A program made the position numbers and the translations under genes. The notes beneath the pieces were generated by a model. That model was not told the origin of the DNA. It saw nothing but the letters and a program-made list of their open reading frames with translations, and did no database searches. A stretch of 16,661 nt of DNA, taken from IMG/VR virus record IMGVR_UViG_2531839454_000015; one strand, 5' to 3'. Shown one piece after another: positions 976-14,432 of the stretch. Numbering within the stretch: the stretch's first letter is position 1; each line of letters starts with the position of its first letter. This DNA comes from a virus (lineage: Duplodnaviria; Heunggongvirae; Uroviricota; Caudoviricetes).

Positions 976-2433
976 ATGAATACATCTCATGTAAGAGTTG
1001 TTACTCATATGTGTGGGTTCCTGGTTTGGCTCTATAGTCTTTCAATGTTGCCACCAATGGTTGTAGCATTGTTTTATAAAGAAAAAAGCCTGTTCGTTTT
1101 CTTTATAACTTTCGTTATATTTTTTTGCATTGGTGGCGGAGCGTGGTATACAACTAAGAAATCTGGCATTCAATTACGTACCCGTGATGGGTTTATTATA
1201 ATTGTAATGTTTTGGATTTTGTTTTCTGTTATTAGTGCATTCCCTTTATGGATTGACTCAGAACTTAATTTAACGTTCATTGATGCTCTGTTTGAAGGGG
1301 TTTCTGGAATAACAACAACAGGAGCAACTGTAATTGATGATGTTAGTTCATTACCTCGGGCATATTTGTACTATCGGTCACAGTTAAATTTTATAGGTGG
1401 TTTAGGAGTTATTGTTCTGGCGGTTGCTGTATTGCCATTATTGGGTATTGGTGGTGCAAAGCTTTATCAGTCAGAAATGCCGGGGCCATTTAAGGATGAC
1501 AAACTCACTCCCCGCCTGGCCGATACGTCACGGACACTGTGGATAACTTATTCTTTATTAGGTATTGCTTGTATTGTCTGTTATAGACTTGCAGGAATGC
1601 CTTTGTTTGATGCTATTTGTCACGGGATTTCCACAGTTTCGCTTGGTGGTTTCTCAACTCATAGCGAGAGTATCGGATATTTTAATAACTATTTGGTTGA
1701 GCTGGTGGCTGGTTCTTTTTCCCTGCTATCGGCTTTCAACTTCACTCTTTGGTATATTGTTATTAGCAGGAAAACGATAAAACCTTTAATCAGAGATATT
1801 GAACTTCGTTTCTTTCTGTTAATAGCCTTAGGGGTGATCATTGTTACCTCTTTCCAGGTCTGGCATATAGGTATGTATGACTTGCATGGAAGTTTTATTC
1901 ATTCGTTTTTTCTTGCCAGCTCCATGCTCACTGATAATGGTTTAGCTACGCAGGATTATGCAAGTTGGCCCACGCACACGATAGTGTTTTTGCTGTTGTC
2001 AAGTTTCTTTGGGGGATGTATAGGTTCAACTTGTGGTGGAATTAAGTCACTTCGATTTCTTATACTTTTCAAACAAAGCAAACACGAGATAAATCAGCTT
2101 TCTCATCCCAGAGCGTTGTTGAGTGTAAATGTAGGAGGGAAGATAGTTACAGATCGTGTAATGAGGTCTGTATGGAGTTTCTTTTTTCTTTATACTCTCT
2201 TCACGGTGTTTTTTATACTGGTGTTAAATGGTATGGGATATGATTTTCTTACATCATTTGCAACAGTGGCTGCATGTATTAATAATATGGGATTAGGTTT
2301 TGGGGCTACTGCATCGTCATTCGGAGTGCTTAATGACATTGCAAAATGTTTAATGTGCATAGCTATGATTCTTGGTCGCCTTGAAATTTATCCTGTTATT
2401 ATATTGTTTTCAGGTTTTTTTTGGCGCTCCTAA
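976..2433 (+). CDS. trkG: TrkG, Trk-system K+ uptake membrane protein (TrkH/TrkG family)
   Basis: 485 aa polytopic membrane protein starting MNTSHVRVVTHMCGFLVWLYSL, with repeated pore-loop-like glycine motifs (TTTGATV, GGFS, GGIKS). Recalled as the Rac-prophage trkG of E. coli. GC content is markedly lower than the flanks. The track ORF start at 958 is a TTG; ATG 976 gives the canonical N-terminus. Confidence 0.9.
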   Translation: MNTSHVRVVTHMCGFLVWLYSLSMLPPMVVALFYKEKSLFVFFITFVIFFCIGGGAWYTTKKSGIQLRTRDGFIIIVMFWILFSVISAFPLWIDSELNLTFIDALFEGVSGITTTGATVIDDVSSLPRAYLYYRSQLNFIGGLGVIVLAVAVLPLLGIGGAKLYQSEMPGPFKDDKLTPRLADTSRTLWITYSLLGIACIVCYRLAGMPLFDAICHGISTVSLGGFSTHSESIGYFNNYLVELVAGSFSLLSAFNFTLWYIVISRKTIKPLIRDIELRFFLLIALGVIIVTSFQVWHIGMYDLHGSFIHSFFLASSMLTDNGLATQDYASWPTHTIVFLLLSSFFGGCIGSTCGGIKSLRFLILFKQSKHEINQLSHPRALLSVNVGGKIVTDRVMRSVWSFFFLYTLFTVFFILVLNGMGYDFLTSFATVAACINNMGLGFGATASSFGVLNDIAKCLMCIAMILGRLEIYPVIILFSGFFWRS

Positions 2434-2519
2434 TATATGGCTGATTTATAATTGTGAGTTTAATATTATGTTGACTCACTCATTGATCCAATACCTAACT
2501 TTACCAGCAACCCCTCCGT

Positions 2520-2551
2520 CCCCAGTAGCACTGGCTGCTGGGGTGCGTTTT
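2520..2551 (+). terminator. Putative intrinsic terminator downstream of trkG
   Basis: Hairpin CCCCAGTAGC / ACTG loop / GCTGCTGGGG (10 bp stem with one G-U) followed by TGCGTTTTATT. It sits between the trkG stop and the ParB-like start. Confidence 0.4.
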
Positions 2552-2570
2552 ATTCATAAAGCAAGGCTGT

Positions 2571-3362
2571 ATGAGCGAGAAATTAAAGATAGTCTATCGC
2601 CCATTACAAGAATTGTCACCGTATGCGCACAACGCCAGGACGCACAGTACTGAGCAGGTGGCACAACTGGTAGAAAGTATTAAGCAATTCGGCTGGACTA
2701 ATCCGGTGCTGATTGACGAAAAGGGCGAAATTATTGCGGGTCACGGTCGTGTTATGGCGGCTGAAATGCTCAAAATGGATTCTGTTCCGGTCATTGTTCT
2801 GTCTGGCCTGACGGATGAGCAGAAAAAGGCGTACCGCCTGGCAGATAATCGCCTGCCGATGAATGCTGGCTGGGATGAAGATCTGTTGCGGATGGAGCTG
2901 TCGGACCTAATCAATGCTGATTTTGATGTCTCCCTGACAGGCTTCATCCCGACAGAAATTGATGAACTGTTGACGGATGTTTTGCCCGGTACAGGAAATG
3001 AGGAGGAGCCGTATACGACGAAAATTGATACGCCTGTTTATGAGCCGTCGGGCGGTAAACCGGATATCAGTGAACTGTACGACGATACGAAAACTCAGGA
3101 GCTGATCAGCCGGATACGTTCGGCGTCCCTTGAGCCTGATATTGAGAAATTCCTCCTGTGTGCGGCAGAACGTCACACGGTGTTTAATTTCAGCAGAATT
3201 GCGGACTATTACGCTCACGCCCCCTCTGAAATTCAGTGTTTTTTCGAGGAGTCGGCGCTGGTGATCATTGATTATCAGCAGGCTATTGAAAATGGATTTG
3301 TCCGGATGACGCAGCGCATGGTGGAGATCATGCATAGTGGTGAGGAGGAGGAATATGCGTGA
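2571..3362 (+). CDS. ParB/Srx N-terminal-domain protein (ParB-like nuclease/NTPase fold) with uncharacterised C-terminal half
   Basis: N-terminus has ParB-box-like motifs: IVYRPLQELSPYAHNART and IIAGHGRVMAA (the GxxRxxA arginine motif). 263 aa with an acidic tail. Possibly an intact counterpart of E. coli K-12 Rac ynaK, from memory. Confidence 0.8.
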   Translation: MSEKLKIVYRPLQELSPYAHNARTHSTEQVAQLVESIKQFGWTNPVLIDEKGEIIAGHGRVMAAEMLKMDSVPVIVLSGLTDEQKKAYRLADNRLPMNAGWDEDLLRMELSDLINADFDVSLTGFIPTEIDELLTDVLPGTGNEEEPYTTKIDTPVYEPSGGKPDISELYDDTKTQELISRIRSASLEPDIEKFLLCAAERHTVFNFSRIADYYAHAPSEIQCFFEESALVIIDYQQAIENGFVRMTQRMVEIMHSGEEEEYA

Positions 3363-4287
3363 TGATTTTTGCGCCTTTATTCTGACTCACGGGCGACCGG
3401 ACAAAGTTCTGACTTACCGGACGTTGCGTCGTGCTGGCTATACCGGGAAAATTTTTATCGTTGTTGATGATGAAGATAAGACACGGCATCAGTACATGGC
3501 TGAATTTGGTGAACAGGTGCTGGTGTTTTCCAAAGCCGATATCGCCAGTCGTTTTGACGAAGCCGATAATTTCTGTGACCGCCGCTCAATTTTTTACGCC
3601 CGTAATGCCTGTTTCGACCTGGCAAAACTGGTCGGGTGTAAATACTTCATTCAGCTCGATGATGATTATCACGAGTTCCAGTTTCGGGTGGATCGCAACT
3701 ATGACCAGGCCTATTTTCCGATAAGGAAACTGGATGCGATCCTTTCTGAAATGCTGGCGTACTACGAATCAATACCTGCTCTTTCCATCGCTATGTCGCA
3801 GGGCGGGGATTTTCTTGGTGACAATGGCGGCCATGCTTCGTGGGTGAAACGCAAGGCAATGAACAGCTTTATCTGTTCGGTTGATCGACCGTTCTCATTC
3901 ATGGGGCGCATTAACGAGGATGTGAATACGTACACGAATCTCGGTCGCTGTGGTGAATTGTTTATGACGATCGGTGCTGTCCAGTTAGGGCAGAAACAGA
4001 CGCAGAAAAACAGCGGCGGAATGACCGAGCTGTATCTGGATTCCGGAACCTACGTTAAAAGTTTTTACTCCGTCATGTATGCGCCGTCGTGCGTAAAAAT
4101 CTCACTGATGGGTGCCAGCCATAAACGCATTCACCATCAGGTCACCTGGAACAACGCTGCAGTAAAAATCCTTCACGAAAAATACAGGAAGAAGACACCC
4201 TGCATATCAATGGGGGTGACAAATGATTCCGTATTCGAAAGTCGAGTCTCTGGCAGCGTGCCGGATGACTGCACAACAAATCGCTGA
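3355..4287 (+). CDS. Soluble GT-A-fold (GT2-like) nucleotide-sugar transferase-like protein; function unknown
   Basis: ATG 3355 is preceded by the strong RBS GAGGAGGAGG and overlaps the ParB-like stop by 8 nt. The N-terminus FCAFILTHGRPD...GKIFIVVDDEDKT and a later FIQLDDDYHEF resemble the beta1/helix/EIIVVDD and DxD motifs of GT-A glycosyltransferases such as SpsA. No hydrophobic TM segment. Fold assignment is by eye only. Confidence 0.55.
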   Translation: MRDDFCAFILTHGRPDKVLTYRTLRRAGYTGKIFIVVDDEDKTRHQYMAEFGEQVLVFSKADIASRFDEADNFCDRRSIFYARNACFDLAKLVGCKYFIQLDDDYHEFQFRVDRNYDQAYFPIRKLDAILSEMLAYYESIPALSIAMSQGGDFLGDNGGHASWVKRKAMNSFICSVDRPFSFMGRINEDVNTYTNLGRCGELFMTIGAVQLGQKQTQKNSGGMTELYLDSGTYVKSFYSVMYAPSCVKISLMGASHKRIHHQVTWNNAAVKILHEKYRKKTPCISMGVTNDSVFESRVSGSVPDDCTTNR

Positions 4288-4474
4288 CGTTCTGGATGTT
4301 GATCTGAACCGACTGAAAGAAAATCGGGAAGCAATGACAGATTTTTATGCGGCCATCCGTAAGGGCAGAGCGAAAGGTGAAGCCGAGTTACGAGCGGCAT
4401 TGTTTAAGCTTGCCAGAAAAGGGGATGCCTTTGCTCTGCGCGAACTACTCAGGGTGGATAAAAATCAGGACTAA
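4223..4474 (+). CDS. Small hypothetical protein, possible HTH DNA-binding protein
   Basis: 83 aa ORF immediately upstream of the terminase small subunit. The TAQQIADVLDVDLNRL segment looks HTH-like. It overlaps the 3' end of the GT-A-like gene by 65 nt; an alternative start at ATG 4265 cuts the overlap to 23 nt. Confidence 0.45.
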   Translation: MIPYSKVESLAACRMTAQQIADVLDVDLNRLKENREAMTDFYAAIRKGRAKGEAELRAALFKLARKGDAFALRELLRVDKNQD

Positions 4475-4477
4475 CTG

Positions 4478-5572
4478 ATGAGCAGACCGGACTGGGGGGC
4501 GTTGCAGCAGGAGTATATTGCTGAATACACCCGCTCCGGTATATCTCCGGTGGCATGGTGTGAAGCAAGGGGACTGAATTACGCAACAGCCCGTCGTTAC
4601 ATCAAAAAAACTCCGAAAAATGCGCAGACAGAAATGTGCAAAACTGCGCAAAAAAGTGCGCAGAAAAAATCTGCGCAGACTGAACAAAAGCGGAACGAAA
4701 AATCTCAGGAAAAAAAGCCAGTATTCGATGCGGGCCTGAATGAGGGCGACGCGGAGGAATTTTCGTTCTGTCCCGATGAATTCGGCATTTCTGACCAGCA
4801 GGCTAAGTTTGCGATGCTTGTTGCTCAGGGTAAAAAGCCGACAGAGGCGTACCGACTAGCCGGTTATGAGGGGCAAGGTGCGACAGCTAACAGCAACGCC
4901 AGTCGTATGCTTAGAAATGCCAGGGTTTTTCGCGCTATCAGCTACTTCCGCAATCAGTACCAGAAACGCTATACCGCAGACCTGGATTTACTAGTGAGTC
5001 AGTTGATGGCTATTGTCCTGGCCGACCCCAATCAGCTTGCACAATTTCGCCGTGTTAACTGCCGTTATTGCTGGGGCGAGAATCATCTCTACCAGTGGCG
5101 CGATATAGCAGAATTCGACAAGGCAGCGGCGCAGGCTTCCAGAGATGGCAAACCCGAACCGGAATATGGAGGCCTCGGCTTTGTTGATAACGCCATACCC
5201 AATCCGGACTGCCCGAAGTGCTGCGGTGAGGGAACGGGACAGCTTTATATGGCTGATACCACTCTGCTTGATGGGGATGCGCGGCAATTATATGCAGGGG
5301 CAAAATTCGGAAAATTCGGCGTTGAGATCCTGCTGGAGGATAAGGCTGCCGCCCGGCGTGAATTGTTGCGTTTGTTTTCTGCTGGCGGGGCTTTATGTGC
5401 AGATAAACGGCTACAGGAACTGGAAATTGAACGGCGCAGAATGGAAAACCAGAAGCTGCGCAAAGAGATCGAAACGGTGGAAGATAATGAACATCCCCAG
5501 CCTGTGGCGATCAATATTAATGTGGTTGATGCCAGAGTAAGGAGTGATGAAGATGATCTCTCCGACGCTTAA
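4478..5572 (+). CDS. Terminase small subunit (Terminase_2-like), unusually long at 364 aa
   Basis: N-terminal HTH-like region, then the characteristic AYRLAGYEGQGATANSNASRMLRNARV motif of small terminase subunits. Sits directly upstream of the large subunit. Confidence 0.75.
   Translation: MSRPDWGALQQEYIAEYTRSGISPVAWCEARGLNYATARRYIKKTPKNAQTEMCKTAQKSAQKKSAQTEQKRNEKSQEKKPVFDAGLNEGDAEEFSFCPDEFGISDQQAKFAMLVAQGKKPTEAYRLAGYEGQGATANSNASRMLRNARVFRAISYFRNQYQKRYTADLDLLVSQLMAIVLADPNQLAQFRRVNCRYCWGENHLYQWRDIAEFDKAAAQASRDGKPEPEYGGLGFVDNAIPNPDCPKCCGEGTGQLYMADTTLLDGDARQLYAGAKFGKFGVEILLEDKAAARRELLRLFSAGGALCADKRLQELEIERRRMENQKLRKEIETVEDNEHPQPVAININVVDARVRSDEDDLSDA
4621..4677 (+). repeat. Array of five palindromic TG(C/T)GCA hexamers inside the terminase small subunit gene
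   Basis: TGCGCA at 4621, 4645, 4657 and 4672, and TGTGCA at 4636, with spacings of 15, 9, 12 and 15 nt (all in-frame). They encode the low-complexity K/T-A-Q stretch NAQTEMCKTAQKSAQKKSAQTEQ. Confidence 0.5.
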
Positions 5573-6854
5573 TGTGCCTCAGGCGCGATTTCTTTCAATG
5601 CCCCATAAATTTAAAGCCTATATTGCTGGTTTTGGCTCGGGCAAAACATGGGTTGGGTGTGGCGGCATATGCAAGGGGATTTGGGAGCATCCAGGTATAA
5701 ATCAGGGATATTTTGCGCCAACGTATCCCCAAATTCGCGATATTTTTTACCCTACAGTGGAAGAAGTTGCTGCTGACTGGGGATTGAACGTAAAAATTAA
5801 TGAGGGAAATAAAGAGGTTCACTTTTATTACGGACGTCAGTATCGGGGAACCACTATCTGCAGATCGATGGAGAAGCCACAAACGATCGTCGGTTTCAAA
5901 ATTGGTAATGCGTTGGTGGATGAACTGGACATTTTGCCGAAGGAAAAAGCCAGAACGGCGTGGCGCAAGATAATTGCACGTATGCGTTATAAGATTGATG
6001 GACTTCGCAACGGTATTGACGTTACAACCACGCCGGAAGGATTCAAATTTGTCTACGAGCAGTTTGTTAAAGCCGTGCGTGAAAAAACAGAGCTGGCCTC
6101 ACTGTATGGTCTGGTGCAGGCATCTACTTTCGATAATGAAAAGAACCTGCCAGCAGATTACATTCCTTCGCTTCTTGAATCATACCCTCCAGAGCTGATT
6201 AAAGCCTATCTTCGAGGACAGTTTACTAACCTGACAAGTGGTACTGTTTACCATCAGTTTGACCGGAAACTGAATAATTGCGAAGAAGTGGAGCAGCCAG
6301 GGGAGCCGATTTATATTGGGATGGATTTTAACGTTGGAAAGATGGCGGGAATCGTCCATGTGCTGCGTTTGGGGCTTCCATGTGCGGTAACTGAAATCAT
6401 CAATGCCTACGATACGCCGGATATGATCCGCATCATTAAAGAACGCTTCTGGCTGTATGATGGGAATGATTACCGGAAAGTGAGGGAAATTTATATTTAT
6501 CCAGATGCTTCCGGGGATTCCAGAAAATCAAGTAACGCAAGTACGACGGATATAGCCCAGCTTAAGCAGGCTGGTTTTAACGTTGTGGTGAACAGCTCGA
6601 ACCCGCCAGTAAAAGATCGCGTTAACTCAATGAATGCAATGTTCTGCAATGCCAATGGTGAGCGTCGCTATAAAGTTAATGTGAAGCGTTGCCCGTTATA
6701 TGCCGAATCTCTGGAGCAACAGGTCTGGGATGAGAAGGGGGAGCCTGATAAAAAATCTGGCAATGATCACCCGAATGATGCCGGAGGTTATTTCATCGTT
6801 AAGCAATTCCCTATTGTCAAACCGACCGGAAGAGTCACATCACTTCGGATTTAA
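5553..6854 (+). CDS. Terminase large subunit (ATPase/nuclease)
   Basis: Walker A motif AGFGSGKT near the N-terminus. RBS AAGGAG at 5539-5544 precedes ATG 5553. About 433 aa, following the small subunit. Confidence 0.85.
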   Translation: MISPTLNVPQARFLSMPHKFKAYIAGFGSGKTWVGCGGICKGIWEHPGINQGYFAPTYPQIRDIFYPTVEEVAADWGLNVKINEGNKEVHFYYGRQYRGTTICRSMEKPQTIVGFKIGNALVDELDILPKEKARTAWRKIIARMRYKIDGLRNGIDVTTTPEGFKFVYEQFVKAVREKTELASLYGLVQASTFDNEKNLPADYIPSLLESYPPELIKAYLRGQFTNLTSGTVYHQFDRKLNNCEEVEQPGEPIYIGMDFNVGKMAGIVHVLRLGLPCAVTEIINAYDTPDMIRIIKERFWLYDGNDYRKVREIYIYPDASGDSRKSSNASTTDIAQLKQAGFNVVVNSSNPPVKDRVNSMNAMFCNANGERRYKVNVKRCPLYAESLEQQVWDEKGEPDKKSGNDHPNDAGGYFIVKQFPIVKPTGRVTSLRI

Positions 6855-6856
6855 TT

Positions 6857-8263
6857 ATGGCTGATATATCAACACCCAACCTCGACTATAACGATATGCT
6901 GGAGGCGTGGGATATTAACGACGCACTGATGGGCGGTACGCTTGAAATGCGCAGGCAGGGGGAAAATTATCTCCCAAAATGGCCTAACGAAGATGAAGAC
7001 GCTTATAAAAAACGCCTGTCTGTGGCTACGCTACTTCCTGTGTATGAAGAAAGCATCAAGCAAAATATTGGGCGCATATTTGCAGAGCCGACAGTATTGA
7101 GTGAGGAAACGCCGGCAAAAATCAGGGAATATGCAGAAAATATCGACATGGAGGGGAGCCGACTGGATGTGTGGGCGCAGCAATTTTTCAGCCTCGCATT
7201 TCAGTATGGTGTGGCACATGCGCTGGTGGACTATCCACGAACGGATATGAAAGAGATTCGTACAAAAGCCGATGAAAACGCGACCGGTGGTCGTCCGTAC
7301 GTTACGATGCTGAATCCACGCCAGGTTATTGGATGGAAATCGAAAGTTGAAAAAGGGAAAGTTGTTCTCACTGATTTGCGTATAAAAGAGGTCATCATTA
7401 TTGATGGTGATGATTTCGGGCAGAAGAAGGTGGAGCAGATCCGCCATATTATGCCCCGTCGAGTTGAAATTTATCGACGTAGCGAAGGCACTAATGGCGA
7501 ATCTGTCTGGACGCTTCATGAGTCATGGAATACCAGCCGTGATGATATTCCTCTGGTAACACTGTACACGAAGAAAACAGGATTTATGCGTGGTACACCG
7601 CCATTGCTTAATCTTGGCTTGCTGAATATCAAGCACTGGCAAAGCCAGAGCGAGCAGGACAATATTCTTCATGTTACCCGCGTTCCATTGCTGGTGGCCT
7701 ACGGGCTGGACAGGAATGAAGAACTGACGGTTGGTGCATCCACCGCTACGATTTTTGAGGACAGAACAAAAAATGGCCTCGAATATGTTGAACATAGTGG
7801 CGCAGCGATAGAATCTGGCGAAACATCACTTGAGAAGCTGGAAAATCAGATGCGTCATGCCGGCGCTAAACTTCTGCGTGCTGAAAATACATCCACCAAA
7901 TCTGTTGATCAGACTAATGAAGAGCGAATGCAGGAAAACTCGCCGCTTTATACAATGGCGAACTCCCTCGAAGATGCCCTCGATAATATTCTCCAGATAA
8001 TGGCGGAATGGATCGGAGAGAGTTGCGGTGGCAATGTGGATGTGCGCACTGAACTGGATGTATCTGCCCAGGTGTTTGACTCATCCTCCGCGCTGGCTGT
8101 TCAGTCATTGCGTCAGGGCGGTGATATACGTCAGATTGATGCGGTTCGGGTGTTGCAGGCGTTGAAATTTATCGATCAGGATTCCCGTCCAGAGGAAGTG
8201 ATCGATGAATTAAAAAATCAGAGTGTAATGCTGATGGAAATCAATGATGCAAACCGTGAATGA
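6857..8263 (+). CDS. Portal protein (putative)
   Basis: 468 aa ORF translationally coupled to the terminase large subunit (stop TAA, then TT, then ATG). Called by synteny (TerL, portal, MuF-like, scaffold, capsid) and size; no motif confirmation. Confidence 0.6.
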   Translation: MADISTPNLDYNDMLEAWDINDALMGGTLEMRRQGENYLPKWPNEDEDAYKKRLSVATLLPVYEESIKQNIGRIFAEPTVLSEETPAKIREYAENIDMEGSRLDVWAQQFFSLAFQYGVAHALVDYPRTDMKEIRTKADENATGGRPYVTMLNPRQVIGWKSKVEKGKVVLTDLRIKEVIIIDGDDFGQKKVEQIRHIMPRRVEIYRRSEGTNGESVWTLHESWNTSRDDIPLVTLYTKKTGFMRGTPPLLNLGLLNIKHWQSQSEQDNILHVTRVPLLVAYGLDRNEELTVGASTATIFEDRTKNGLEYVEHSGAAIESGETSLEKLENQMRHAGAKLLRAENTSTKSVDQTNEERMQENSPLYTMANSLEDALDNILQIMAEWIGESCGGNVDVRTELDVSAQVFDSSSALAVQSLRQGGDIRQIDAVRVLQALKFIDQDSRPEEVIDELKNQSVMLMEINDANRE

Positions 8264-9359
8264 ACGGCTGCGTGATGAATCAATTGCTCATGCAGTCTGG
8301 ATATCCCGCTATAGCACTGGCGTGGCTGCCAGAATGGTGAAAATACTGAATGACAGCGATGCGGAACTTACTGCTCGCCTGCTGATAGCACTGGACAGCC
8401 TCGATCCAGGTAATTTTACCGTTAAGCGCCTGGAGTCACTTCTGGCGAGCGTCAGAAAGGTTAACCGCACTGCTATTAACAGCATGTTTACCAGTCTCTC
8501 CGGAGAGCTGAACGAGCTGGCAATTTATGAGGCTGGTTATCAGTTAAGTCTGTTTGATTCTATGCTACCTGATTTTGTTGCTGATGTTCACCCTCTGGTT
8601 GGTATCTCTCCTGATGCACTTTATGCCGCTGCAATGGCGCGACCATTCCAGGGACGACTGCTCAGTGAGTGGGCCTCAGATCTTGAGGCGGATCGGCTCA
8701 GACGCATAACAAATACAGTGCGTCAGGGTTTTTTGCTGGGGGATACCAATGAGCAGATCGCAAGAAAAATTCGGGGACATGTCAGTAAGGGATTTCAGGA
8801 TGGTGCATTGCAGATGAGCCGGGCTAATGCGGCCAGCATTGCAAAAACAGCGGTTGGACATCTTGCTGCTACTGCCCGTGAGAGTTTTGCCAGCGCGAAT
8901 AATGATTTGATTAAGGGTAAGCAATGGTTATCAACGCTTGATAATCGTACTACGCCACAATGTCGAATCAGGGATCGCCTCAAATATACGCTGAATAATA
9001 AACCTGTAGGTCACAGCGTGCCTTATTTGCAGGGGCCGGGAAAAATTCATTTCTGCTGCCGCTCAACGGAAACGTTCATTCTGAAATCAGCGAAGGAACT
9101 GGGTATTGATGTTCGCGATATTTCCCCGGCTGAGCGGGCCAGCATGGATGGCGTGGTGGCCGGAGATACAACCTACAGGGAATGGTTTTTGCGTCAGCCT
9201 TACACCAGACAAAAACAGATTGTGGGGGAAACCCGAGCAAAGCTGATTCGGGATGGTGGTATGTCGCCAGATGAATTTTACACCGATAAAGGCGAATGGC
9301 TGACGCTGAAGCAGCTCCGTGAGCGTGATGCACAGGTATTCAGAAAAGCAGGGATTTAA
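8244..9359 (+). CDS. Head morphogenesis / minor capsid protein (Mu F / SPP1 gp7-like, putative)
   Basis: 371 aa ORF overlapping the portal stop. Position between portal and scaffold is typical of MuF/gp7-family proteins. Assignment is by synteny and general resemblance only. Confidence 0.5.
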   Translation: MMQTVNERLRDESIAHAVWISRYSTGVAARMVKILNDSDAELTARLLIALDSLDPGNFTVKRLESLLASVRKVNRTAINSMFTSLSGELNELAIYEAGYQLSLFDSMLPDFVADVHPLVGISPDALYAAAMARPFQGRLLSEWASDLEADRLRRITNTVRQGFLLGDTNEQIARKIRGHVSKGFQDGALQMSRANAASIAKTAVGHLAATARESFASANNDLIKGKQWLSTLDNRTTPQCRIRDRLKYTLNNKPVGHSVPYLQGPGKIHFCCRSTETFILKSAKELGIDVRDISPAERASMDGVVAGDTTYREWFLRQPYTRQKQIVGETRAKLIRDGGMSPDEFYTDKGEWLTLKQLRERDAQVFRKAGI

Positions 9360-9382
9360 ATAAATCATTTATTACAACAGGC

Positions 9383-9407
9383 TACCTTCGGGTGGCCTTT
9401 TTTATTG
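9383..9407 (+). terminator. Intrinsic terminator after head morphogenesis gene
   Basis: AGGCTACC / TTCG loop / GGTGGCCT (8 bp stem, one G-U) followed by TTTTTT. It lies inside the track's N-terminal extension of ORF 9392..10228, which argues for the downstream start at 9464. Confidence 0.55.
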
Positions 9408-9463
9408 CTGCGATCCGGATGGTGAGCAGCGTAACTGTCGGAAGACTTAAACCAGGTACTAAT

Positions 9464-10228
9464 ATGAAACTGAAAACGGTCGAGATTAACGGAAAACAAT
9501 ACGCAGAAATTGATACTGCTGGCCTGCCAGTTTATGTGCACGACGATGGTAAAGAAATTGGCTTCGATGCACCGCTGGCGACAAAAAAAATTACAGAGCT
9601 TAATGGCGAGGCAAAAAATCATCGCCTGGCTAAAGAAGCTGCAGAGGAAAAACTGGCTAAGTTTGCCGCTATCGAAGACCCGAAGAAGGCGATCGAGGCA
9701 CTGGAAATGCTGTCAAAAATCGACCAGAAAAAGCTGCTCGATGCGGGACAGGTTGACCAGGTTAAGGCAGAAATTACGAAAAATTTTCAGCAGCAATTAG
9801 ATGAAGAAAAGCAACGCTCTCAGATGCTGGAGAAGCAGCTTTACGATTCTATGATTGGCGGTAGTTTTGCGGGTTCAAAATATATTGCCGATAAAATTGC
9901 GATCCCGGCAGATTTATTACAAGCCCGCTTCGGGCAGGCATTCAAAGTGGAAGAAGGGAGGATCGTTGCTTATGACGCTTCCGGCAACAAAATTTATTCC
10001 CGCGCGAAGCCTGGCGAACTGGCGCAGTTTGATGAGGCGCTGGAGTTCCTTGTCGAAAATTACCCTCAGAAAGACTACATCCTGAAAGCCAGTGGCAACA
10101 ATGGCGGCGGCTCCCGTCCGACACAGCATGATATTGGTCAGAAAACGATGAAACGCTCTGCTTTTGATGCACTGGATGTTGCAGGTAAGCAAAACGCATT
10201 GAAAGACGGTATCACAATCGTTGATTAA
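9464..10228 (+). CDS. Scaffolding protein (putative)
   Basis: ATG 9464 gives MKLKTVEINGKQYAEID.... 254 aa, charged and predicted helical/coiled-coil (EEKLAKFAAIEDPKKAIEALEMLSKIDQKK...), immediately upstream of the major capsid gene. Confidence 0.5.
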   Translation: MKLKTVEINGKQYAEIDTAGLPVYVHDDGKEIGFDAPLATKKITELNGEAKNHRLAKEAAEEKLAKFAAIEDPKKAIEALEMLSKIDQKKLLDAGQVDQVKAEITKNFQQQLDEEKQRSQMLEKQLYDSMIGGSFAGSKYIADKIAIPADLLQARFGQAFKVEEGRIVAYDASGNKIYSRAKPGELAQFDEALEFLVENYPQKDYILKASGNNGGGSRPTQHDIGQKTMKRSAFDALDVAGKQNALKDGITIVD

Positions 10229-10326
10229 CACATTTGTCAGCTTCCGGATGGGAGCTGGTGTCAGGGCTGGATAGCTCATTACTCCATCTATTCACAATTA
10301 CGCAAATTTTTAAGGAATATTTAATT

Positions 10327-11466
10327 ATGGCTGGAAATACCCTGACCGGGTTGATCCCGACTATTTATACCGCCCTGGATGTTGTATCCCGTGAGCAGGT
10401 AGGTTTTATCCCTGCGGTAGCAAAAAACGCAAAAGCTGACGCCGCAGCAAAAGATCAGACGGTAACCGCGCCAGTTGCGCCTGAGGCGAAAACCGAAGAT
10501 ATCGTACCGGGGCCGTCAGCTCCGAATACCGGTGATCAAAATATTGGCACTGTTGATGTAAAAATTACTAAATCCAAAATGGCACCGGTTAAATGGAATG
10601 GTGAAGAACAACTGGCTCTTGGCCCTTCAGGGACTTACAACACCATTCTGGCTGATCAGTTCAAGCAGGCTTTTCGCGCCCTTGCAAACGAGGTTGAGGC
10701 TGATCTTGGTGCGTTGTATTTCGGTGCTTCCCGCGCCGTGGGAACCGCAGGGACAACGCCGTTTGGTGTTAAAGATGATCTTTCTGATGCTGCTCTGGCT
10801 CGTCAGGTTCTGGAGGATAACGGCGCACCGACAACCGATCTGCAGATGGTGCTTGGCTCCACTGCCATTGCTAATTTGCGCGGAAAACAGTCTGTATTGT
10901 TTAAAGTGAATGAATCCGGCACTGAACAGCTACTGCGTGAGGGCGTGTTGGGGCGTCTGGAGGGATTCAATATTCACAGTTCGGCAGGTGTGAAACGAGC
11001 GCCAAAGGTTGCTGCAACTGGTTATCTCGTGAATGGAGAGAAAAAAGAAGGCGATGTTCTTATTTCCATTGATACTGGTTCGGGGAGTATTTCTGCAGGT
11101 CAGATTGTTACGTTCGCTGGTGATCCGAATCAGTATGTTGTGGCAGCAGCGACCAGCAATCTGATTACTCTTGCAGCGCCCGGACTGCGTCAGGATCTGG
11201 CCGATGATACTGCCATCACAGTTGTTGGGGCCTTTACGGCAAATATGGCGTTTGATCGCAACGCGTTTCTGCTGGCATCCCGTACTCCGGCAATGCCGGA
11301 AGGTGGCGATAATGCTGATGATGTAATGAATGTTACGGACCCGATTTCAGGGATTACGTTCCAGATTGCACTGTATCGTCAGTATCGCCAGGTGCGCTAT
11401 GAAGTTGGACTGGCATGGGGTGTTTCATCAGTGAAGCCGGCACATGGTTGTCTGATTCTTGGTTAA
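10327..11466 (+). CDS. Major capsid protein (putative)
   Basis: ATG 10327 is preceded by AAGGAA and gives MAGNTLTGLIPTIYTAL.... About 379 aa, following the scaffold and followed by a strong terminator, which fits a highly expressed coat gene. The track start at 10234 is an unlikely N-terminal extension. Confidence 0.6.
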   Translation: MAGNTLTGLIPTIYTALDVVSREQVGFIPAVAKNAKADAAAKDQTVTAPVAPEAKTEDIVPGPSAPNTGDQNIGTVDVKITKSKMAPVKWNGEEQLALGPSGTYNTILADQFKQAFRALANEVEADLGALYFGASRAVGTAGTTPFGVKDDLSDAALARQVLEDNGAPTTDLQMVLGSTAIANLRGKQSVLFKVNESGTEQLLREGVLGRLEGFNIHSSAGVKRAPKVAATGYLVNGEKKEGDVLISIDTGSGSISAGQIVTFAGDPNQYVVAAATSNLITLAAPGLRQDLADDTAITVVGAFTANMAFDRNAFLLASRTPAMPEGGDNADDVMNVTDPISGITFQIALYRQYRQVRYEVGLAWGVSSVKPAHGCLILG

Positions 11467-11476
11467 ACATTCAAAC

Positions 11477-11497
11477 GGGGCTTCGGCCCCATTTTTA
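11477..11497 (+). terminator. Intrinsic terminator after major capsid gene
   Basis: GGGGC / TTCG / GCCCC hairpin followed by ATTTTTAAT. Confidence 0.55.
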
Positions 11498-11508
11498 ATG
11501 GGGGGCAT

Positions 11509-11685
11509 ATGGCCGGATTAACTAAAGAGCAAAGAGCACAGCGTGAAGCCGCACAAAAAACGCAAATTGAGTTAGTGGTTATGGTGACCGATTATCAGAT
11601 GTTTCCCGGCGCACCAACTATCGCTAATGTTCATCCTGATGAAGTTGACAACTGGAAGGCTATGGGCTGGAAAACTCAGGAGTAA
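11509..11685 (+). CDS. Small hypothetical protein (58 aa), not in ORF track
   Basis: ATG 11509 after a GGGGG run; MAGLTKEQRAQREAAQKTQIELVVMVTDYQMFPGAPTIANVHPDEVDNWKAMGWKTQE. It fills the gap between the capsid terminator and the next gene and ends 3 nt before that gene's ATG. Confidence 0.3.
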   Translation: MAGLTKEQRAQREAAQKTQIELVVMVTDYQMFPGAPTIANVHPDEVDNWKAMGWKTQE

Positions 11686-11688
11686 CAC

Positions 11689-12084
11689 ATGATCACTTAC
11701 GTGACCTGTGATGACGTTGATAATGCGTTTGGGAACGCCTGGACGAGTGAGAACGCTAAAAATAAAGCTGTTTTAATGGCTAATGCCTGGCTTAATGGCT
11801 TCAACCTGAAAATTAACCCATCCCGTATTCCGGAAGAGGTAAAACTTGCGGGAGCATATGCAGCCAGAATTGCCTCATTCGGTAAGTTGTTTCAGCAGAA
11901 AAATGATTCTGGCGTTGTTATCAGTAAAGCCGTGTCGGCTGACGGGGTCAGTGTATCGAAATCATTTTCTGAGTTGCCAGCAAACAGCACTGCATTGCTT
12001 GAACCCGATTTACAGCTTGCGATAGCACTGCTGAAACCGTACGGACTTAGTCGCTCACAAGTCAGGGTTGTGAGGGGGGGATAA
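11689..12084 (+). CDS. Head-tail connector / head completion protein (putative)
   Basis: 131 aa ORF with RBS AGGAG 6 nt upstream. First of four small tightly coupled genes between capsid and major tail genes. Called by synteny. Confidence 0.4.
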   Translation: MITYVTCDDVDNAFGNAWTSENAKNKAVLMANAWLNGFNLKINPSRIPEEVKLAGAYAARIASFGKLFQQKNDSGVVISKAVSADGVSVSKSFSELPANSTALLEPDLQLAIALLKPYGLSRSQVRVVRGG

Positions 12085-12467
12085 TGGGGCTTCGTGAAGA
12101 GATTCAGTCAGAGGTTGCCGCTGCTTTTGATGAGGATTTAGCGGACGCCGTGAGTGATTTTTCTGGTTCTTACGTTACGCACCGGCACTGGGATCCTGTG
12201 ACGGAAACTGGCGGCGAATCCACCGCAATCTATACCGGGCGAGGCGTGTTGACACGTTATAAGCTGGGCAGAATTGATGGGATTAATATTTTGCATGGTG
12301 ACCTTAAATTAACCGCTCTGGTATGCGAGGTTACGGATAAACCAGCTGTCGACCATATTATTGAGATTTATGATCCTGTATCAAGGCAGTTACAACGATA
12401 CGAGGTAATTACAGCAAGTGTAGATCCTTCCGCATCAGTTTACTCTATCCAGTTAAGGAGAGCGTAA
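12084..12467 (+). CDS. Head-tail joining protein (putative)
   Basis: 127 aa ORF whose ATG overlaps the upstream stop (TAATG) and is preceded by GAGGGGGGG. Called by synteny. Confidence 0.35.
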   Translation: MGLREEIQSEVAAAFDEDLADAVSDFSGSYVTHRHWDPVTETGGESTAIYTGRGVLTRYKLGRIDGINILHGDLKLTALVCEVTDKPAVDHIIEIYDPVSRQLQRYEVITASVDPSASVYSIQLRRA

Positions 12468-12848
12468 ATGGCAAAGGCATGGGATATAGAACCGTCAATA
12501 TTTGCCGGGATGATTGAGGAAGATGTAGGGCTGAAGATTCGCTACATCGCTATTCAGATTCTTACTGCTATTGATATTGCTGCTCCGGTTGATACCGGAC
12601 GTTTCAGAAATAACAACCTGGTGTCGTTACAGCATCCCGATTTTGGTATATCTGATAACGTGGATCCGAACGGTACGATTGCTGTTCAGCGTGGGATCGG
12701 GGTTATTTCGAAAGCTGCAAATTACGGAGTTATTTATATCCAGAATAACCTTCCTTATGCAGAGGCTCTTGAAAACGGTCATTCACAACAAGCGCCAACT
12801 GGCGTGTATGCCAACGCTTTTCATGGTGTTTTACAGGCTTACAAATGA
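12468..12848 (+). CDS. Neck/tail-completion protein (HK97 gp10-like, putative)
   Basis: 126 aa ORF with RBS AGGAG. Contains an APVDTGRFRNN motif reminiscent of HK97 gp10-family proteins. Called by synteny. Confidence 0.4.
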   Translation: MAKAWDIEPSIFAGMIEEDVGLKIRYIAIQILTAIDIAAPVDTGRFRNNNLVSLQHPDFGISDNVDPNGTIAVQRGIGVISKAANYGVIYIQNNLPYAEALENGHSQQAPTGVYANAFHGVLQAYK

Positions 12849-13237
12849 CGTTTACTGAAATCAGAAATACGGTTATTTCCAGAATGACGGCACAGACGAT
12901 TATTGATGGAAAAGACGTATTGTATCCGAACGCGCCAACGTTCGATCCTTCCGGTAAGTTAATCTGGGCGCGGTTAAGTAATATTCCCGGGCAGGCTGGA
13001 GTTAATGAAATTGGCGCGGGGCCGATTGTTTATCGCACGGGGATAATCATTATTCAGTTATTTGTCCCCGCAGGTTCTGGTTCAAAACTCATTACTGAGA
13101 CAGCCGATAAATTGCGGGAACTGTTTGAGTTTCAGGATGACGATCGTCTCAGTTACCAGGCTGTTTCCTCAATAGCCGTTGGCGAAAAGAATGGCTGGTT
13201 CCAGCTTAATCTTCAAATTCCATATCGCGCGCTCTAG
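12845..13237 (+). CDS. Tail terminator / tail completion protein (putative)
   Basis: 130 aa ORF with ATGA start/stop overlap with the upstream gene, immediately before the major tail gene. Confidence 0.35.
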   Translation: MTFTEIRNTVISRMTAQTIIDGKDVLYPNAPTFDPSGKLIWARLSNIPGQAGVNEIGAGPIVYRTGIIIIQLFVPAGSGSKLITETADKLRELFEFQDDDRLSYQAVSSIAVGEKNGWFQLNLQIPYRAL

Positions 13238-13263
13238 CGCAATTAATGACATAGGAGGCTCCT

Positions 13264-14226
13264 GTGAGTTCAGGTGCAAAGGTTATCTCGGCATTTATCC
13301 GGGAGACGGTTGCAGGCACTACGCCAGCAAGTGGTGACTGGAGTTTATTAAAACGCACAAGCTGGGGAGTAAAACCCACCCAGAATAAAGGCGAAAATAA
13401 TGAGATTGGTGGCTCCCGGATGGCTCAGGGGGCGACGCCTGGCACTGTGGATGTCGGCGGTGATGTTGGTACCAAATTTCGCTGGGGTCAACATGATGAT
13501 TTTCTTGCATCCTGTTTCGGCGCGGAATGGTCAGGCGATTCTCTGACAATGGGGAATGAGCGAATAACATTTTCTCTGGCGACCTATGCGTCCGATGTCG
13601 GAATTGCCTCTGTCGTCAGAGGAGCGCAGGTTGGCTCATGGAAAATGCAGATCCCTAACGACGGCGATATTACAGCGACCGTAACCTTTGCCGGACTGGA
13701 CTGGGAATCAAAGGCCGATGATACGAATTTTATCAAAGGCGAACCTGTGGATAGTGCAGGAAAGCTACGTTATTCGTTTAAGGAGGTTTCAGCAGTAAGC
13801 CTGAATGGTGTTGCCGGAGGTAACGGTTTTTGTATCGACAGTTTTGATATTCAGTTCGATAACAAACTCCAGACACAGCGTTGTATCGGGACTGGCTCGC
13901 CTTATGCAGGAGCAAATATTCCGACTACTTTTACACCGTCCGGTACGGTGACGCTTTCATGGTCTAAAGCCGCGTGGGAAATCTGGAGTAAAACACTGAC
14001 TGGAGAAACAGTTCCGTTCAGCTTCACGCTTTCGAATGGAGAGGGGGCATACACTTTCAGTTTCCCGAAGGTTCAGGTGTCAGGTGAATGGCCTGATGGG
14101 GGTAATAGCGACATTATCCAGGTTCAATTGAGCATTACCGCAGCAGATGAAGCACCTACGATAACCAGAAAAAAAAATTCCCCGGCTGCCGTGATCGCAA
14201 AAGCCAGTGCTGAGGCGATTAGTTGA
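13264..14226 (+). CDS. Major tail (tube) protein (putative)
   Basis: GTG start preceded by AGGAGG. 320 aa, Gly/Thr/Ser-rich, located just upstream of the chaperone pair and tape measure gene. Confidence 0.5.
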   Translation: MSSGAKVISAFIRETVAGTTPASGDWSLLKRTSWGVKPTQNKGENNEIGGSRMAQGATPGTVDVGGDVGTKFRWGQHDDFLASCFGAEWSGDSLTMGNERITFSLATYASDVGIASVVRGAQVGSWKMQIPNDGDITATVTFAGLDWESKADDTNFIKGEPVDSAGKLRYSFKEVSAVSLNGVAGGNGFCIDSFDIQFDNKLQTQRCIGTGSPYAGANIPTTFTPSGTVTLSWSKAAWEIWSKTLTGETVPFSFTLSNGEGAYTFSFPKVQVSGEWPDGGNSDIIQVQLSITAADEAPTITRKKNSPAAVIAKASAEAIS

Positions 14227-14432
14227 TTTTCCGTTATTCCTCCTGTGGTACTGCCCTACAGGGGGACGCATTGAATGAGGTTATGGATGTTTATTCTTAA
14301 TCAGAAAATTATCATTGGTGGAGAACGCTGGTTTACGCCAATGAAGGACTTAAAACCTGTAGACGGGTTAAAAGCAGCGATAACGATCAGTATCGCTCCC
14401 GTAATGCATTAATCCGTCGCCACATTGAGAAA

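Follow-up and report, generated by a model that had tools for sequence, protein, structure and literature searches.

The DNA-modifying glycosyltransferases (GTs) of the TAGT type characterised so far all glycosylate 5-hydroxymethyluracil (5hmU) or 5-hydroxymethylcytosine (5hmC), and these bases are made by 5-methylpyrimidine dioxygenases (5mYOX/TET) or by hydroxymethylases of the ThyS type. It was recently shown that a subclass of phage thymine dioxygenases needs a neighbouring ParB homologue, only on double-stranded DNA (dsDNA) (O'Toole et al., PNAS 2026, PMC13229309). The activating ParB is composed of a nucleotide-binding domain (NBD), an unstructured segment and a C-terminal domain (CTD) and has no DNA-binding domain (PMC13229309). 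Insertion of preQ0 into DNA by the enzyme DpdA depends on DpdB, an ATPase of ParB fold (PMC10164549), and later papers credit Iyer et al. 2013 with the proposal that ParB directs DNA-modification enzymes during packaging. Here we consider two overlapping genes of a tailed virus, a Rac-like E. coli prophage with the IMG/VR record IMGVR_UViG_2531839454_000015, analysed as a stretch of 16,661 nucleotides (the window). The first open reading frame (ORF1) encodes a ParB-like protein and the second (ORF2) a glycosyltransferase of GT-A fold. The features of the pair, with lengths and residues in amino acids (aa), are as follows.

2571..3362, + strand: ORF1, gene of the ParB-like partner, 263 aa; intact, full-length form of ynaK of E. 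coli K-12
2571..2975, + strand: ParB/Srx NBD of ORF1, aa 1-135, with motifs N21-A-R23, G57-H-G-R60 and D92-N93
3012..3047, + strand: linear motif Y148-T-x-K-I-x-x-P-x-Y-E-P159 within the linker predicted to be disordered (aa 137-162)
3063..3359, + strand: module-specific CTD of ORF1, aa ~165-263, FLxxAAERHTVFNFxKIADYYAHA...SALVIIDFxKAIExGF, very conserved
3342..3351, + strand: Shine-Dalgarno sequence GAGGAGGAGG of the GT gene, inside the 3' end of ORF1; kept in E. coli-type loci
3355..3362, + strand: 8-nt overlap ATGCGTGA of the two genes (GT start codon ATG 3355-3357, ParB stop codon TGA 3360-3362)
3355..4287, + strand: ORF2, TAGT/JGT-like GT-A glycosyltransferase gene, 310 aa from ATG 3355
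3394-3396, 3658-3666 and 3916-3921: ORF2 motif residues R14, D102-D103-D104 and E188-D189, respectively

A preliminary description of this DNA had reported both ORFs with their peptide motifs, the overlap and the ribosome-binding site, all of which are indeed present, and had proposed that the ParB-like protein engages DNA and the GT glycosylates DNA, or a packaging or virion component, just before or during packaging. In our opinion, the pair may be a DNA glycosyltransferase that depends on ParB, is produced late and works on replicated DNA before or during its packaging, and we consider the arguments for and against this reading to be about evenly balanced. It fits the data best and has precedents in the systems named above (PMC13229309, PMC10164549), but it is still something that we infer, and a source of hydroxymethylated pyrimidines is absent. 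The ORF and domain matches at the locus are themselves well beyond chance.

ORF2 is a clear member of the TAGT family (PF20691) with a GT-A fold. It scores 122.3 bits against the Pfam TAGT profile (cut-off 27.5), with aa 8-222 covering profile positions 4-205 of 205, and matches phrog_842 with an E value of 6e-104; all ORF2 homologues among the matches listed carry PF20691. The AlphaFold2 (AF2) model, obtained from 62 homologues (AF2 models are monomers of each protein), has a predicted local distance difference test score (pLDDT) of 89.7 and matches 126 PDB chains at E<=1e-3. GT-A enzymes dominate the best 50 of these 126, TarP being the first, and the nucleoside-modifying AvpGT is among the top PDB structural matches, in agreement with the fold that the preliminary description had read from the segments FILTHGRPD, IFIVVDDEDKT and FIQLDDDYHEF. 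The top BFVD matches of the model are phage proteins with TAGT domains (TM up to 0.79). The catalytic motifs are intact: R14, D102-D104 and E188-D189 are invariant or conserved at >=90 % in the 62 sequences. V190 stands for the Y/F of the ED(Y/F) motif in ORF2, Y193 is conserved, and conservation is lost in the tail, aa ~285 to 310 (4207-4284). The GT family is large, with 1321 clusters at 50 % identity, and the name given to ORF2 by the annotation pipeline PGAP is sometimes 'GREB1-related protein'. Thus, by sequence, fold and motifs the GT fits TAGT, but it lacks the association with TET that stands behind the family name.

ORF1 is a ParB/Srx-fold protein and not a partition ParB. It contains IVYRPLQELSPYAHNART and IIAGHGRVMAA, matches Pfam ParB_N over aa 23-90 (29.3 bits, cut-off 26.3) and phrog_620 (E 1e-90), and the AF2 model of its NBD (pLDDT about 75-92) was matched by Foldseek to the CTP-binding ParB (ParB-CDP), Noc, KorB and PadC and also to Srx, so that the fold suggested earlier for the first protein is borne out. 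The residues of the NTP-binding (nucleoside triphosphate-binding) motifs are present, namely Box I N/Q-x-R, Box II GxxR and Box III D/E-N; N21, G57, G59, R60, D92 and N93 are invariant in 46 partner sequences, and R23 is lost in some variants. A helix-turn-helix (HTH) DNA-binding domain was not found in ORF1 by Pfam profile search or in the AF2 model, and the score against the partition family TIGR00180 is 38 bits, under the 58-bit cut-off. A canonical partition ParB (ParABS) was considered and rejected on these grounds and in view of the lack of parA in the neighbourhoods examined; parS was not searched for.

The linker of ORF1 has an AF2 pLDDT of <50 and is predicted to be disordered, yet Y148, P155 and Y157 of its motif are invariant in 41 diverse sequences, and K151 and P159 are so within the enterobacterial set. 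The CTD profile gave no significant match to PDB sequences or Pfam; the insignificant ones were only to designed armadillo repeats, together with a recurrent sub-threshold match of 20 residues to PF23887. Both genes are under strong purifying selection (dN 0.15-0.31), with dS saturated, and exact dN/dS values are therefore mostly not computable.

The most telling property of the two genes is their near-obligate pairing. Loci retrieved with the GT were drawn from genomes, IMG/VR and metagenome assemblies; one locus that starts at the GT (L087) was left unscored, and a scan of genome contigs with a single protein contributed 7 loci. A protein with the CTD lies directly upstream of the GT in 93/94 of the GT-retrieved loci, and the GT start overlaps the partner stop by 4-20 nt in 89/94. 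In the opposite direction, a TAGT GT is found downstream in all loci retrieved independently via the CTD (78/78), being adjacent in 69; in most of the remaining nine a single gene stands between the two, and the intervening genes encode a histidine-phosphatase/nucleotidyltransferase-like fusion, a radical-SAM (S-adenosylmethionine) protein or a second TAGT copy. Both directions combined, the CTD protein and the GT co-occur in 171/172 loci, and no third gene is conserved with the pair in >170 loci. The pairing and the overlap, for which the preliminary description had called for a survey of prophage genomes, are therefore upheld.

The NBD is less constant than the CTD. The N-terminal domain of the partner varies by ParB subtype, with GHGR or GGNMR in Box II, and in T4-like Vibrio phages of 191 kb the partner is a CTD-only protein of 139 aa before the GT, the ParB NBD being missing. 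It is therefore the CTD that is specific to the GT; the ParB NBD serves usually, though not universally, as the effector domain. In Vibrio phage pv27 (OR413349; L177, 6459-7888) the CTD-GT pair was found among genes of a single-stranded DNA-binding protein (SSB), an exonuclease, a primase and a helicase and not beside the terminase.

Rosetta-stone fusions of ParB with the GT were sought among the long homologues, and none was found. The GT has other extensions, namely a P-loop NTPase-like domain or a second TAGT copy at the N-terminus and a SAM methyltransferase or sulfotransferase at the C-terminus. In the homologues P0271, P0306 and P0318 and in that of locus L094 (1879-3270), a P-loop (GxxxxGKS) NTPase/kinase-like domain takes up about 180 aa at the N-terminus, and the ParB-CTD gene is still present upstream of such GTs. 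A radical-SAM gene stands before the pair in L094 and between the two genes in L111. In two loci (L103, 3488-4456; L152, 867-1811) a gene of ~320 aa is inserted between the ParB-CTD gene and the GT; on inspection of the sequence, its product has a histidine-phosphatase-like N-terminus (RHGQT) and a cytidylyl/adenylyl-transferase-like C-terminus (HSGH motif), which suggests the synthesis of a special nucleotide-activated donor. Since the homologues or the modules around them have methyltransferase, sulfotransferase, P-loop NTPase-like and nucleotidyltransferase-like parts and extra GTs, these data indicate that some versions of the module build decorated glycans, as known DNA-glycan pathways do. 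Indeed, the accessory fusions and inserts resemble the kinds of enzymes reported from such pathways: an O-methyltransferase-type methyltransferase, a kinase-like P-loop NTPase, a second GT, a sulfotransferase and a nucleotidyltransferase-like enzyme.

The distribution of the pair is very wide. Its DNA matches 1580 of the 5426 complete E. coli genomes, in 889 of them at full length, and it is present in >570 IMG/VR contigs. Its hosts include Proteobacteria, Lactobacillus, Nocardia, Porphyromonas and the archaeon Haloarcula, and among the cultured carriers are Lactobacillus phages c5, LL-Ku, phiLdb and phi jlb1, Nocardia phage NTR1, Porphyromonas phages and the haloarchaeal virus HHTV-2. Across phages of Gram-negative, Gram-positive and archaeal hosts the pair is kept at 40-60 % identity. 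Almost always, the first large ORF that follows the pair encodes a terminase, and in phage c5 the pair forms ORF1 and ORF2, the first genes after cos. In 45 non-redundant loci the terminase matches downstream were Terminase_6N (15), Terminase_3 (14), Terminase_2 (11), GpA (5) and TerL_ATPase (5). The terminases directly downstream of the pair belong to at least four families, and its position is thus conserved across unrelated head modules. One phage with the pair (L093) also has four GT2-family genes directly downstream of its capsid gene (17837-20316), a cluster that could serve virion glycosylation. A Superficieibacter prophage with the pair (L005) has a C-5 cytosine DNA methyltransferase of 649 aa (1156-3102) about 7 kb upstream, which was not seen as a recurrent gene at other loci.

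In the window, the following neighbours surround the pair.

958-2433: trkG moron, GC 33-40 %
2520..2553, + strand: terminator-like hairpin (2520-2543) and T-tract, after the AT-rich trkG moron and 17 nt upstream of ORF1
4265..4474, + strand: small ORF of 70 aa from ATG 4265, or 83 aa from 4223; it overlaps the GT tail
4478..6854, + strand: terminase genes, with the small subunit at 4478-5572 and the large one at 5544-6854; terminase follows the pair in almost all related loci

The pair thus lies between trkG and the terminase genes, just where it had first been placed. Its GC content (48-50 %) is the same as that of the terminase genes and the phage backbone, unlike that of the moron. No convincing promoter of its own was found upstream of the pair, a terminator-like hairpin closes trkG and the gene order runs from the lysis genes through trkG and the pair to the terminase; for these reasons the pair looks like part of the late operon, and the late position beside the packaging genes assumed in the preliminary description is supported. 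The match of the small ORF (4223-4474) to a small-terminase PHROG is confined to the middle of that family (positions 145-218 of 319), and the 364-aa protein after it (4478-5572) has a Terminase_2 domain from residue 122. The small terminase may be split or may have an accessory HTH-like subunit.

From these data the following scheme may be proposed. The JGT/TAGT-type GT-A enzyme would be the catalytic subunit of a self-contained late phage module, and its obligate partner, a ParB-type NTPase without HTH, would form a complex with it, in which the CTD probably docks the GT and on which the activity of the GT would depend. Translational coupling would deliver both proteins together. A ParB dimer, driven by NTP binding, would clamp or open replicated dsDNA and present it to the GT, which would move a sugar from a nucleoside diphosphate sugar to phage DNA before or during packaging, and the glycosylated DNA would be shielded from host nucleases. 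Envelopes and proteomes differ entirely from host to host, so that a universal acceptor such as DNA is required, and the invariant companions of the GT are only DNA and the partner protein; it is on this basis that we favour a DNA glycosyltransferase. The place of the CTD-GT pair among replication genes (SSB, primase, helicase) in the T4-like Vibrio phages also counts for a DNA target.

Among the described systems, the closest in architecture is the dioxygenase 5mYOX176 with its ParB176. By its published description, that ParB also has the NBD-linker-CTD arrangement and no DNA-binding domain, and it adjoins a post-replicative DNA-modifying enzyme near terminase genes. N21, H58 and D92 of ORF1 are the same substitutions at Q52, E93 and E126 of Mx ParB, positions that were mapped by motif spacing and matching and not by structural alignment. 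The differences are that the client here is a GT-A glycosyltransferase and not an iron- and 2-oxoglutarate-dependent dioxygenase, none of which is present, and that the present CTD, highly conserved, occurs specifically with the GT. DpdA-DpdB offers another parallel, a ParB-fold NTPase being indispensable for an enzyme that modifies DNA bases on dsDNA (PMC10164549), but DpdB is an ATPase of the DGQQR/SspE-like branch, does not associate stably with DpdA, and the enzyme that it serves is a transglycosylase of a bacterial restriction-modification system, not a phage GT. The ORF1 NBD itself is closest to the fusions of ParB with N6/N4 DNA methyltransferases (phrog_498, E 9e-51; PADLOC MTase_II, E 1.5e-38; Kaljevic et al. 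2025). These are prophage-borne too, but their ParB is covalently fused to a methyltransferase, whereas the ParB-like protein of the pair is a subunit on its own, translationally coupled to an enzyme that is a GT.

On the side of the GT, the relatives are the trypanosome base-J glucosyltransferase and the phage 5hmC-modifying GT-A enzymes (Pyle et al. 2024). PF20691, the GT-A fold, the phage origin and the R...DDD...ED motifs are shared, and TarP as the top PDB match was reported for phage GT-A enzymes as well. The described enzymes cluster with a C5-methyltransferase and 5mYOX or with ThyS-type hydroxymethylases; here neither is found, but there is an obligate ParB-CTD partner. The alpha- and beta-GTs of phage T4 and the beta-glucosyl-HMC-alpha-glucosyltransferase of T2/T6 are likewise phage DNA glycosylation enzymes that protect against restriction, but they act alone, on 5hmC incorporated pre-replicatively. 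Both T4 enzymes have the GT-B fold, and the beta-enzyme (BGT) serves as the GT-B reference in the study of phage GT-A DNA glycosyltransferases.

The main difficulty for DNA glycosylation is the missing hydroxymethylated base. In the Rac-like prophage, the 20 kb to either side of the pair contain no annotated TET/JBP, ThyS-like hydroxymethylase or other enzyme that generates a hydroxyl, nor is any hydroxyl-generating enzyme annotated in the whole 31.8-kb genome of phage c5. No enzyme for a hydroxymethyl base was found within about 10 kb in 8 Pfam-annotated loci, and none recurs among the 150 ORFs upstream of the pair in 24 diverse loci, a survey in which families of a single ORF were not displayed and rare cases of a hydroxymethylase are possible. 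Moreover, no 5-methylpyrimidine dioxygenase was found near the pair. The pv27-type Vibrio genome encodes, besides the pair, thymidylate synthase, dihydrofolate reductase and a deoxynucleoside monophosphate kinase. Canonical DNA has no hydroxyl to which a sugar could be O-linked, and there is, to our knowledge, no precedent for a sugar on a base that is unmodified. About 65 % of the GT contigs of Pyle et al. have neither 5mYOX nor ThyS; the authors left this unexplained and deemed such contigs less likely to act on DNA. The CTD, which would dock the GT, is modelled by AF2 with low confidence, and GREB1, a relative of TAGT, was reported to glycosylate protein (O-GlcNAc). Apart from the Vibrio genes just named, these points weigh against the DNA glycosyltransferase that we favour.

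Since no source of 5hmC or 5hmU was found, the acceptor must differ from that of the characterised relatives unless an unrecognised enzyme supplies the hydroxymethyl base. One possibility to consider is a complete two-protein system that needs no prior hydroxymethylation, in which the ParB NTPase would open dsDNA to the GT and the GT would put the sugar directly onto a canonical or host-methylated base (e.g., at an exocyclic amine) or onto the backbone; it is possible but, in our estimate, rather doubtful.

The explanation that survives best beside DNA glycosylation, although we regard it as unlikely, is glycosylation of a protein. The target would be the YTxKIxxPxYEPS linker motif of the partner, or else a packaging or virion protein from the adjacent genes, with the ParB-like protein as substrate, primer or adaptor. 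A motif that is invariant and yet predicted to be disordered looks as a docking or acceptor peptide would, the GT has no other constant protein companion than the partner, the relative GREB1 is a reported protein O-GlcNAc transferase, the pair adjoins packaging genes, and the L093 phage has four further GT2 genes in its head module. However, the neighbouring terminase, portal and capsid families vary from locus to locus, so there is no conserved virion acceptor, and in the Vibrio phages the pair sits in a replication module. In a plain enzyme-substrate pair, the conserved NTP-binding motifs of ParB would have no obvious role, and the characterised phage members of the GT family act on DNA.

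Distinctly improbable, in our view, is a conventional glycosylation of 5hmU or 5hmC, for which an enzyme that has escaped recognition, encoded at another place in the genome of the phage or the host, would supply the precursor. It would bring the GT into line with all characterised DNA-modifying enzymes of the TAGT type; thousands of divergent 5mYOX-like sequences have no TET/JBP annotation (O'Toole et al., PMC13229309), many neighbouring ORFs have no Pfam match, and the Vibrio carriers encode a homologue of thymidylate synthase. Nevertheless, neither the phage c5 genome nor the Rac-like prophage contains an annotated candidate, and a conserved third gene, as noted, does not accompany the pair. 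E. coli, as far as we know, is not known to make 5hmC or 5hmU.

We hold it to be very improbable that the target is a cell-envelope polymer, with seroconversion or superinfection exclusion as the outcome (as for TarP or Gtr), or else some small molecule or nucleotide, e.g., a signal in immunity or the nucleotide in the ParB domain. Three observations speak for such targets: the best PDB match is TarP, a prophage GT for wall teichoic acid, AvpGT modifies nucleosides, and the ParB fold includes the small-molecule kinases SerK and Srx. Against the envelope stand the 40-60 % identity of the pair across hosts with differing envelope polymers, the lack of a membrane-associated Gtr-type partner gene in the neighbourhoods, and the genes themselves, which are late ones adjoining the packaging genes, not in a position of lysogenic conversion, and which have, unlike the trkG moron, the GC content of the backbone. 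A seroconversion GT in particular was rejected, its host range being too broad and a Gtr-type partner gene lacking in the neighbourhoods.

That the two genes are unrelated neighbours, the ParB-like protein working in partition, in packaging or as a nuclease independently of the GT, deserves hardly any credence, even though prophages and the surroundings of terminase genes often contain ParB-like genes and fusions of ParB with methyltransferases, since the 171/172 co-occurrence practically rules out chance adjacency, the start/stop overlap is conserved across bacterial phyla and an archaeal host, the CTD accompanies the GT even without the ParB NBD, and neither an HTH domain nor, in the neighbourhoods examined, a parA gene is there.

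With regard to E. coli K-12, the preliminary description had taken ynaK and ydaY of the Rac prophage for remnants of the two genes, which is correct for ynaK, a truncated ORF1, and wrong for ydaY, which is no remnant of the GT. In the Rac prophage of MG1655 (L096, 1421000-1431000) an 11.5-kb deletion joins window position 2824 to 14372. Lost with it are the GT and most of the ParB-like gene, as well as the genes of terminase, portal and head and some of the tail region. As a result, only the first 254 nt of K-12 ynaK come from ORF1 and continue into distal sequence, nothing is left of the GT gene, and ydaY is an ORF on the fusion side, from the sequence past 14372. Because the GT gene is deleted, K-12 is a natural null background for the module, and a gain-of-function test is simple, as the module consists of two genes and K-12 naturally has no GT. 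In one genome (L001, 20001-20258, equal to window 2571-2828) PGAP calls the intact 263-aa gene, whose ORF is 100 % identical to that of the window, a truncated pseudogene 'ynaK' with a missing C-terminus; this call seems to be an artefact that arose because the truncated K-12 protein of 87 aa served as the reference.

Other names in the databases need the same caution. Annotation based on PHROG transfers 'beta-glucosyl-HMC-alpha-glucosyltransferase' to the GT family (records ON470609 etc., NC_019449 and NC_021340), a name that is unsupported in phages with no annotated gene for 5hmC synthesis, and in the same records the partner is misnamed 'chromosome (plasmid) partitioning protein' or 'ParB-like partition nuclease'. 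As a whole, the present annotations of the pair as an HMC-glucosyltransferase, a partitioning protein and a spurious ynaK pseudogene are misleading. Neither a description nor an experimental test of the ParB-GT pair was found in the papers searched, and the literature searched gave no functional data on ynaK/ydaY, phage c5, LL-Ku or HHTV-2. In the papers searched the pairing is thus uncharacterised, as had been said; the idea behind it is less new than had been supposed, as later papers credit Iyer et al. 2013 with ParB-directed modification during packaging.

If the DNA is glycosylated, the principle of ParB-dependent modification would extend from dioxygenases to glycosyltransferases, and the sugar would be attached without a hydroxymethyl handle, i.e., by a new acceptor chemistry. 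If direct glycosylation of bases or backbone is true, it would be a DNA chemistry so far undescribed, which as many as one third of E. coli genomes would possess through their lambdoid prophages and which would also be present in phages of Firmicutes, Actinobacteria and haloarchaea. Possible consequences include the resistance of temperate-phage DNA to restriction or CRISPR and effects on sequencing, and the pair may become useful as enzymes for DNA labelling.

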